Positions 20,333-22,340 of a DNA stretch of 48,465 nt are shown piece after piece. A program made the translations under genes and the position numbers. Position 1 is the first letter of the stretch; the number at the start of each line of letters is the position of its first letter. A model generated the notes under the pieces. It saw nothing but the letters and a program-made list of their open reading frames with translations, did not search any database and had not been told where the DNA came from. This DNA comes from Cyprideis torosa (lineage: Eukaryota). The DNA is taken from the NCBI GenBank assembly GCA_905338395.1, contig CAJPEW010001021.1, positions 1 to 48,465 of the forward strand, read 5' to 3'.

Positions 20333-21279
20333 ATGGATAACACTTTTAAAGAATTAGCTGATACGTATGAGGCGGTCATCAAGGAACTCGGAAATGTCCG
20401 AAAACATGCTGAAGAAGTTCATGGAACGGCCCAAACAGCACGAGCCATCGGGACCGGAATAAACTTGACCAGTACTTTCATTGGTGTTGGAGGAATATTC
20501 TTAGCACCGTTCACTGGCGGCCTGTCACTTACCGTTACAGTCGGAACTCTCGGGGGAGTCGTTGTGGGAACTGCTACAAACATCATAACAGATCTTGCTG
20601 AACAGAGTAGCATGAAGGAGAGTGTCGAGAAAGTTGAAAAGGAAATGGAGAAAATCAAGGCCATCGTTGAAGAATTGAAAACTCACATGGAGGTTCTCGA
20701 GAAACAAATGCAGAAGTACATTGAGCAGGGACACAGCGCTGAAGCTGCGTTGGCTATGTCTTTGGGAACTGTGTTGAGTGCAGTTGGACCCAAAGCTGCT
20801 GGGATGTTCGCTCAGTATGCAGTAGACTCGTACTTGTTGTTCCATATCTCTCAAAGTACGGTAGATATTCTTTGTAAACTGGGTGTGAAATCAGATGCCT
20901 TATTGCAATTCGGGGAAAGATTGGCAAATATGTCCAAGGATGCGATTGCAGCTGGCGCATCAGGAATTATCAACGTTGCGGCGAAATCATTGGCAGTTGT
21001 TGGTGCGGTGTATCAGCTTTATCAAGTCTTCCAATTGGCTTCCCACTGGAACGATACTCCCCCGACGGTTGAAAGTATCAACAATTTGTTGGACAAACTC
21101 CGAGCTGAATTGGAACAAGTTCGTGCGCTCCTGGGTCAAATGGAAGCCTTCAAGCGAATGGCGTTGAAAGCCCATGCCTTGGCCATGATCATTGCTGTCA
21201 TGTGGAGGGCAAAAACGAAAAACAAGAATAAATCCAAAAAACAAGACAAAAAACCGCCTCCGTCACAGAAACCGAAGCC
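20333..21279 (+). CDS. ApoL-like (apolipoprotein L family) pore-forming domain protein, exon 1
   Basis: 316-codon ORF; HAEEVHGTAQTARAIGTGINLTSTFIGVGGIFLAPFTGGLSLTVTVGTLGG resembles the APOL hairpin VDKVHRDCTISNVVASSTGAVSGVLTILGLALAPVTAGGSLLLTVAG, followed by coiled-coil and a second amphipathic region; GTAAGT donor overlaps the in-frame stop. Confidence 0.75.
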
Positions 21280-21436
21280 GTAAGTTTTCCTTTTATCATT
21301 TCTTCATTCAAATTAGACGCTCTATACTTGTAATTGGGAGATCCGTATTCAGGAAAATGTTTTCTGTCTGCCTTGGATACGACGTTTTCCTTAGCCAACA
21401 ACTAGCGCGTACTGAAATTGACGATTATTCTTGCAG

Positions 21437-22340
21437 ACCAACACAAGACGATGGTGAGAAGAAGTCGGGAGGAGATCAGTCTGGCCAGACTCAAGGTAAT
21501 AGTCAGGATCCTGATCGAGACAGAGACCGTGAAGAAAGTGAAGAGGAGGAGGAGGAATCTGAGTCCGAAGTAGATCCCTTCGATGAATTCTATGAGCTGA
21601 CCGGAGTACGGTTCAATTTCCCTCCAAACACCGCGTATGGTAATGCGAATACGAGAAGAATTCGGCAGTTGGTACGAACTGCTCAAAACTTCTTGGAAGC
21701 GACGCAGAACCCGATTCTATTGAGGCGCATCGGCACACTGGCAAATGCTGAGTTTCAACGTCTTGGACAACCGACAAATGTTGTAGGATTCGGAAGTATT
21801 TTCGAGACTTTCGTTGCGCTGTTCGGTGTCAGAATTCATTTCAGCCAAGAAGTTGCGGAAATGGTGGGAAGAGTCCCACAACCGGGAAGTCCTCCAGCTG
21901 CACTGGATTGTGGTCCAGTTGAGTTGTCTTTGACTGAAGACGAGATCCAGGAAGTCATCAACGTTTATAGACAACTAATGGATTCTGAATCTACTCATCG
22001 CGTTCAACTGCAACAATACTGTGGAACGATTTCTCTACGGGATTTTCAATTGAATGCTAATGTCAAGTTCCGTACATACGAACATTTGATTTATCATGTG
22101 TTGAAGCATGCACTTGACCCGAGACTTATTCAAAATGGTTGGGCATTTATAGTAACTGTTGGTGCTGATTTTTACTCTATCGTCAGGAGATATATGGAAA
22201 TGTTGAATCAGATTAGCCAAGCGGAGAGGAACAGTACGCAGTGCACTATCGTCATCGAAACGAACGAACATAAAGTGGTTATAATTGTTAAAAATGGACA
22301 AGTTTGGGTTGTCACTTTCTTCATAAAGATAAGAGACTAA
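21437..22340 (+). CDS. ApoL-like fusion protein, exon 2 (PPTQDD..acidic linker + unrecognised ~270-aa C-terminal domain)
   Basis: ttattcttgcag acceptor joins exactly in frame (phase 2) to the 301-codon downstream ORF; spliced CDS 947+904 = 1851 nt = 616 aa. Confidence 0.7.

Follow-up and report, generated by a model that had tools for sequence, protein, structure and literature searches.

An ApoL-family segment joined to a charged linker and an orphan C-terminal region in a gene of the ostracod Cyprideis torosa

Contig CAJPEW010001021.1 of the ostracod Cyprideis torosa (assembly GCA_905338395.1) carries a gene whose product combines a segment of the apolipoprotein L (ApoL) family with a long charged linker and a C-terminal region that has no recognizable relative. 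The window analysed here is the whole 48,465-nucleotide stretch of that contig (positions 1 to 48,465 of the forward strand), to which all coordinates refer, and the gene begins on its plus strand at position 20333. An earlier note, written from the nucleotide sequence alone, had described the locus as a two-exon gene ending at 22340, in which an ApoL-like pore-forming domain is fused to an unrecognized globular domain. This locus is indeed a spliced gene that encodes a protein. Judged from the sequence, its structure is established up to residue 491 of the product.

The first open reading frame (ORF1; 20333-21283, plus strand) comprises 316 codons and is initiated by an ATG in a perfect Kozak context (acaccATGg). 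An in-frame TAG stands 15 nt 5' of this codon (20315-20317), and a missed upstream coding exon in that frame is thereby excluded. The TAA stop of ORF1 (21281-21283) is embedded in a GTAAGT splice donor at 21280-21285, a motif that occurs just 10 times on the plus strand over 48 kb. The intron (intron 1; 21280-21436), which is 157 nt long and of phase 2, closes with the acceptor ttattcttgcag, whose last base at 21436 lies 153 nt past the stop. The coding part of exon 1 (20333-21279) thus specifies residues 1-315 and two bases of codon 316. It closes with CC, to which exon 2 (21437-22340) adds an A, so that one codon is completed across the junction, and the spliced coding sequence of 1851 nt yields a product of 616 residues with its end at 22340. 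Both the stop-in-donor arrangement and the in-phase join that the earlier note had proposed were reproduced, and a public gene model, discussed below, has the same start and uses the same junction.

Several properties of the DNA are those of coding sequence. From stop to stop, the two frames span 383 and 321 codons and are the longest among the 4543 frames of the window, in which the chance expectation for open reading frames of at least 301 codons is about 0.002. The signal-to-noise ratio of three-base periodicity reaches 10.5 in exon 1 and 4.9 and 3.1 in exon 2, with flanking values under 0.4. Neither AATAAA nor ATTAAA occurs within intron 1, and the frame of exon 2 is open backwards across all of this intron into exon 1 (21189-21436, plus strand). 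An in-frame ATG with A at -3 is also present in intron 1, at position 21357, and stand-alone translation from it would give 327 residues. No paralogue or repeat of the locus was found within the window, nor were NF-kB-like sites found upstream of the gene, and the window as a whole shows no enrichment of the NF-kB motif.

On the evidence of profile and pairwise comparisons, residues 5-132 (20345-20728) belong to the ApoL family. They match the Pfam ApoL profile PF05461, which has a gathering score of 25.9, at 36.0 bits (E-value 7e-9) over positions 57-181 of its 298, the runners-up in Pfam being weaker by over three orders of magnitude; the public gene model scores 34.9 bits. No ApoL match was returned by nine composition-preserving controls, one a reversed and eight block-shuffled copies of the sequence. 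The profile search that the earlier note had proposed as a check therefore bears out its ApoL assignment for this segment. Pairwise comparisons were made with a human APOL1 sequence that was verified over residues 61-172, where it is 100% identical to PDB 7L6K. BLASTP aligns residues 5-68 with APOL1 144-207 at 31% identity, including the H-(K)GT junction and the LAPFT(E)GGSL loop, while Smith-Waterman alignment of residues 5-115 with APOL1 143-258 gives a z score of 7.9, the alignment score being reached by none of 500 shuffles. From the alignments to APOL1 and to Pfam, the homologous part consists of the pre-hairpin helix, the hairpin and the following coiled coil.

Within this segment, the pre-hairpin helix (residues 5-33) aligns with APOL1 144-172. 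A putative membrane-inserting helical hairpin follows at residues 38-86 (20444-20590), where there is no charged residue, the Kyte-Doolittle hydropathy is 1.6 and one GxxxGxxxG glycine zipper is found (residues 71-79). The loop of this hairpin, LAPFTGGLSL, aligns with LAPFTEGGSL of APOL1, the APOL1 sequence being verified for residues 61-172 only. Further along, and in ApoL order, lie a second hydrophobic or amphipathic stretch (residues 211-239; 20963-21049; ...VVGAVYQLYQVFQLASHW), delimited by a Kyte-Doolittle window and the AlphaFold2 secondary structure, and a long amphipathic helix at about residues 246-293. The N-terminus is hydrophilic, and hence no signal peptide is expected. Since the protein begins at about APOL1 residue 140, helices 1-3 of the ApoL bundle are missing; Pfam profile positions 1-56 are accordingly unmatched, as are positions 182-298. 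The N-terminal four-helix bundle seen in APOL1 (residues 61-172; PDB 7L6K, 7LF7) is thus not found here. The peptide features quoted in the earlier note all lie in the expected places, its hairpin peptide at residues 38-84.

Other searches with the N-terminal half returned weaker or generic likenesses. A sequence search of the PDB gave no ApoL match at E-values up to 10, and a Foldseek comparison of the N-terminal model with the PDB retrieved only generic helical bundles. Many weak matches to coiled-coil families were seen in Pfam, and NCBIfam scores for MakA (11.6 bits; cut-off 320), MakE (11.6 bits; cut-off 360) and alph_xenorhab_A (10.8 bits; cut-off 125) all fell below threshold, with E-values of about 0.1-0.2. 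Residues 7-270 (20351-21142) also gave a weak match to the PADLOC profile LeoBC (E-value 6e-5, 20 bits, profile positions 412-595 of 601), which represents a dynamin-like protein from the anti-phage system Eleos. The sub-threshold matches to ClyA-type proteins and to LeoBC most likely reflect a generic layout of hairpin plus coiled coil, in the case of LeoBC probably without homology.

The N-terminal half is followed by a low-complexity linker of about 65 residues (296-360; grand average of hydropathicity -2.7), which is basic in its first half (basic linker at 296-317) and acidic in its second (acidic stretch at 340-360). This linker begins in exon 1 at about 21218 and continues through the first part of exon 2 (21437-21569; residues 316-360), the junction between exons 1 and 2 falling inside it. 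The remaining 256 residues (361-616), among which the C-terminal motifs quoted in the earlier note are found at 364-385, 532-562 and 585-616, have an ordinary protein-like composition, with predicted helices followed by an alpha/beta part. They may be divided into region C-A (21570-21962; residues 361-491), which is predicted to be mostly helical, has a periodicity of 4.9 and is common to both gene models, and region C-B (21963-22340; residues 492-616 and the stop), which is predicted to be alpha/beta and is intronic in the public model.

By every sequence comparison made, this C-terminal region is an orphan. An exhaustive HMMER search of 1.84 billion representative proteins returned only the same C. 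torosa gene, and there was no match in NCBIfam, in PADLOC or in metagenome and viral contigs. Among PDB sequences the best E-value was 0.18, and Pfam, searched with the whole tail and with sub-segments, gave nothing above the gathering score. The description of the region as unrecognized therefore stands, no match to a well-known family having been found. A Foldseek search with the low-confidence model of the tail likewise gave no match at E-values up to 1e-3. Used by themselves, neither the N-terminal half nor the tail retrieved anything in word-indexed searches, which missed even the identical public entry A0A7R8ZJS5, so these negatives carry little weight; the same type of search with the full-length query did recover that entry.

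Several candidate identities for the tail were considered and rejected. A PRMT5 domain scored 18.9 bits, below the gathering score of 22.9, and VGADFY stands in place of the G-x-G-x-G loop that binds S-adenosylmethionine. A likeness of the last 100 residues to RelE/DUF4258-like toxin domains was dropped, as no profile match supports it. Nor is the tail a diverged second ApoL repeat: Smith-Waterman z scores ranged from -0.5 to 0.6, compared with 7.8 for a positive control, and BLASTP of residues 361-616 against the N-terminal half of the same protein or against APOL1 gave E-values of 0.44 or worse.

The single relative found by protein search with the full-length query is a 678-residue "unnamed protein product" of C. 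torosa (CAD7227140.1 / CAG0889130.1; UniProt A0A7R8ZJS5), which already carries a precomputed Pfam ApoL domain (PF05461) and for which no encoding contig is recorded. MAKER was used for the C. torosa annotation, a genome-guided Trinity transcriptome serving as its guide (PMC8049415). Residues 1-491 of A0A7R8ZJS5 are identical to those of the 616-residue product. Past residue 491 the public model leaves exon 2 through a donor at 21963 (aac|GTTTAT) and joins an orphan open reading frame of 187 residues (22865-23428, plus strand), which forms its exon 3. The 3' end of the gene is for this reason contested: of the two-exon gene proposed in the earlier note, the splice between exons 1 and 2 is upheld by the public annotation, but the end at 22340 is not.

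Measured against the general splice-donor consensus, aac|GTTTAT is weak, departing from it at -1, +3, +4 and +5. Past 21963 the frame of exon 2 stays open for 126 more codons, the probability of which is 0.002 from the stop frequency of the window and 1e-4 by shuffling of the segment. The in-frame codon score of 21963-22340 is the best among six frames, whereas the downstream open reading frame does not score best in its own frame, both results being weak evidence owing to the small training set. Ranked among windows by three-base periodicity, 21963-22340 lies in the top 3% and the downstream open reading frame in the top 5%, and the periodicity and position-specific G+C of the tail-coding DNA match the coding pattern. 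A candidate polyadenylation signal (AATAAA; 22708-22713) lies 368 nt past the stop at 22340. The downstream open reading frame, for its part, is open for 208 codons from position 22802 (shuffle probability 1e-4), and directly before its ATG stands the acceptor cttccctcag (22855-22864), one of 19 such plus-strand sites in 48 kb. Its TAA lies inside a GTAAGA donor (23425-23430), which repeats the stop-in-donor layout of exon 1. The same open reading frame contains another strong donor, cgg|GTGAGT, at 22875.

No match to the downstream open reading frame was found in Pfam, NCBIfam, PADLOC or the PDB, and the idea that the two alternative 3' regions are duplicated exons was rejected, as they have no sequence similarity to each other. 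An exact look-up in a collection of 15 billion proteins found none of the 616-residue product, ORF1, three start variants of ORF2 and ORF3. Taking these coding signals together, both alternative 3' segments are probably coding, and the 616-residue product is likely to be an isoform of the gene. The downstream open reading frame would be either an alternative 3' exon or a piece of a neighbouring gene that was merged by the predictor.

Among described proteins, the closest are the intracellular human ApoLs, especially APOL3. In common with APOL3 and the other members of the APOL2-6 group, the ostracod protein has no signal peptide, an amphipathic helix before the helix-loop-helix and helical regions after it. 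From this group it differs in that the first three bundle helices are absent, only 125 of the 298 profile positions being matched, and in the addition of the charged linker and of an orphan tail of about 255 residues. We know of no described ApoL with such a linker and tail. With APOL1, the trypanolytic factor (PDB 7L6K), the ostracod protein shares the H-(K)GT junction, the hairpin loop LAPFT-(E)GG-SL and a coiled coil after the hairpin. It differs in that the signal peptide and the acidic residues of the APOL1 hairpin are absent, the BH3-like motif is not conserved, and no significant match to the membrane-addressing or SRA-interacting regions of APOL1 was obtained. As the gene is public with PF05461 attached, membership of the ApoL family is not new; what is not known to have been described is the architecture, which adds to a truncated ApoL core a long charged linker and then a tail, about 255 residues in length, that has no relative.

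Two further comparisons are looser. The gasdermins and MLKL have the same order of parts, a membrane-active N-terminal module being followed by a linker and a C-terminal region that possibly restrains it. This is an analogy of layout only, as no sequence or fold relationship was found. Outside the vertebrates, an ApoL-annotated transcript ranks first among the haemocyte-specific transcripts in the mussel Mytilus galloprovincialis (PMC4581086), which places genes annotated as ApoL-like in an immune-cell context. This was the one incidental mention found in the literature on invertebrate ApoL evolution.

The picture that we favour, with somewhat more belief than doubt, is that of a protein of ApoL type that inserts into membranes and carries a tail, restricted to its lineage, for regulation or targeting; most of the uncertainty concerns the mechanism and the arrangement of the 3' exons. 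Exon 1 would encode a cytosolic ApoL-family protein without a signal peptide, which would begin at the pre-hairpin helix and continue with an uncharged glycine-rich helix-loop-helix and a coiled coil, after which would come the second hydrophobic helix and then a long amphipathic one. Ion transport and toxicity of APOL1 and APOL3 depend centrally on the hairpin, whose acidic residues in APOL1 impose a pH dependence that APOL3 does not have (PMC7891394). By analogy with these two proteins, the ostracod hairpin may insert into a membrane and form a cation-conducting pore or permeabilize it in another way. Because this hairpin contains no acidic residue, insertion should not require low pH, as is the case for APOL3, in which a hairpin of this kind permits insertion at neutral pH (PMC7891394). 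The phase-2 intron within the charged linker would then add the lineage-restricted C-terminal region, and alternative use of 3' exons could give a different orphan tail. Flexibly tethered in this way, the tail would most likely regulate or target the membrane-active module rather than be delivered as cargo. Retention of intron 1 may in addition yield an ApoL-only isoform of 316 residues, since the stop lies in the donor. The idea in the earlier note of a pore-former joined to a cargo module, acting in innate immunity or as a toxin-like effector, is conjecture, nothing found here lending it support.

A bolder version of this picture, drawn by analogy and in our view improbable, would see a two-module, cell-autonomous effector of the gasdermin or MLKL type that arose independently in ostracods. 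It would consist of an ApoL module and a lineage-specific sensing or restraining domain, the alternative 3' exons (21963-22340 or 22865-23428) would serve as interchangeable C-terminal modules, and intron-1 retention would release the bare ApoL executioner.

A number of observations weigh against an ApoL-type membrane-inserting protein with a regulatory or targeting tail. In addition to the limited coverage of the ApoL profile, the BH3-like signature is not preserved (IKELGN as against LRALAD, the acidic residue being gone), and the alignment of residues 195-294 with APOL1 300-398 is not significant (z score 1.7, the score being reached by 40 of 500 shuffles), so that the ApoL likeness claimed for the entire N-terminal half is demonstrated for residues 5-132 only. 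AlphaFold2 models made from single sequences, without an alignment, are of low confidence, with predicted local distance difference test (pLDDT) values of 45 for the N-terminal half and 42 for the tail, and hence neither a pore-forming fold nor a folded, globular C-terminal domain as described in the earlier note is shown. The public model exchanges the last 125 residues of the 616-residue product for another orphan exon, and the G+C content of 21963-22337 is close to that of flanking non-coding DNA (0.38 as against 0.37). The splice junctions are predicted from genomic sequence and gene models, and the role proposed for the protein is drawn by analogy. Even so, it is most improbable that the N-terminal half is no true ApoL relative but a generic hydrophobic hairpin and coiled coil, as in ClyA-type alpha-pore-forming toxins or dynamin-like proteins. 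The sub-threshold matches to MakA, MakE, the xenorhabdolysin A subunit and LeoBC, the many weak coiled-coil matches and the generic bundles retrieved by Foldseek would all suit such an origin, but no other Pfam family comes within three orders of magnitude of ApoL, whose match lies above a curated cut-off, this match disappears in scrambled and reversed controls, and the loop motif LAPFT-GG-SL is held in common with APOL1. The tail, in turn, might be a young and possibly unstructured extension with little or no function, recruited from non-coding DNA through a splice or stop change, in which case the gene would encode a plain ApoL-like protein. This is compatible with the picture given above, but we consider it unlikely. 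It would account for a region that has no homologue anywhere, including the proteomes of two other sequenced ostracods if these are in the 1.84-billion-protein library, whose G+C content and pLDDT are those just given, and whose locus is not repeated in the window; yet an open frame of 300 codons is far beyond chance, the DNA has the periodicity and position-specific G+C of coding sequence, the composition is protein-like and not of low complexity, with predicted helices and strands, and the orphan status may stem from the sparse sampling of ostracods.

The exon structure admits two further alternatives. A distinct if lesser possibility is that the true or prevailing transcript is the one in the public three-exon model, the last 125 residues of the 616-residue product (HLIYHVLKH..., ...FFIKIRD) being intronic. 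The model comes from a transcriptome-guided annotation, the choice of so odd a donor could mirror transcript evidence, and the downstream open reading frame combines its length and periodicity with a rare acceptor placed right at its first codon. Set against these points are the departures of the donor from consensus, the 126 open codons that follow it with the best codon usage of six frames, the failure of the downstream open reading frame to score best in its own frame, a helix predicted with low confidence to span the proposed donor at 21963, and the frequency with which gene predictors fuse adjacent genes. It is quite improbable, by comparison, that there is no fusion, exon 1 being a stand-alone ApoL-like gene of 316 residues and the second open reading frame either a separate gene of 327 residues translated from the ATG at 21357 or 3' untranslated sequence. 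Such an arrangement would draw on the stop codon that is present if intron 1 is retained, on the frame of exon 2 that is open throughout the intron with an ATG in a suitable context, and on a fusion splice that is predicted from sequence and gene models. However, the stop and this ATG are only 74 nt apart, with no polyadenylation signal; a perfect GTAAGT donor is paired with a pyrimidine tract and CAG acceptor in compatible phase; an independent annotation joins exons 1 and 2; and the junction falls within a continuous low-complexity linker.

The rest of the window contains a few other features. On the plus strand, an open reading frame at 115-627 with ...WWPYLMNETYGYLYELEV... and ...IYFRGFGMHEDHD... 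resembles an exon from a beta-glucuronidase-like gene of glycoside hydrolase family 2; in Pfam, it matches Glyco_hydro_2 below threshold (E-value 0.007). On the minus strand, an open reading frame at 27392-28003 contains, at about 27680-27725, the peptide KVHGSLARAGKVRGK, which matches the beginning of ribosomal protein S30 (Pfam Ribosomal_S30, E-value 4e-5, profile positions 1-15), and this open reading frame is probably, from that likeness, an exon of a FAU/RPS30-type gene. A short minus-strand open reading frame at 18513-18812, with ...ARILPIHKAGPKDQPTNYRPISILC..., resembles on visual inspection part of the reverse transcriptase of a non-long-terminal-repeat retrotransposon and has no Pfam match at E-values up to 0.01. 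Tandem repeat arrays are found at 8001-8205 (41 bp, 5 copies, 99% identity), where the array produces a spurious minus-strand open reading frame of 224 residues, at 16592-16787 (27 bp, 7 copies), at 31193-31500 (100 bp, 3 copies, 99% identity) and at 42501-43181 (17 bp, 41 copies). The window ends in an unbroken run of 169 C (48297-48465), which looks like an artefact of sequencing, amplification or assembly at a scaffold end; the published C. torosa genome was reportedly assembled from whole-genome-amplified DNA.

To our knowledge, studies of ApoL proteins have been almost confined to primates, where they concern trypanolysis, kidney disease and the killing of intracellular bacteria. The value of the ostracod gene is limited in that it is already public with its ApoL domain flagged, its tail has neither a homologue nor a confident fold, and its exon structure is contested. 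Nevertheless, a crustacean ApoL with a minimal core of helix, hairpin and coiled coil would help to define which parts of the fold are ancestral and sufficient for membrane insertion, and the ostracod protein would exemplify how pore-forming modules gain lineage-specific regulatory or targeting regions.

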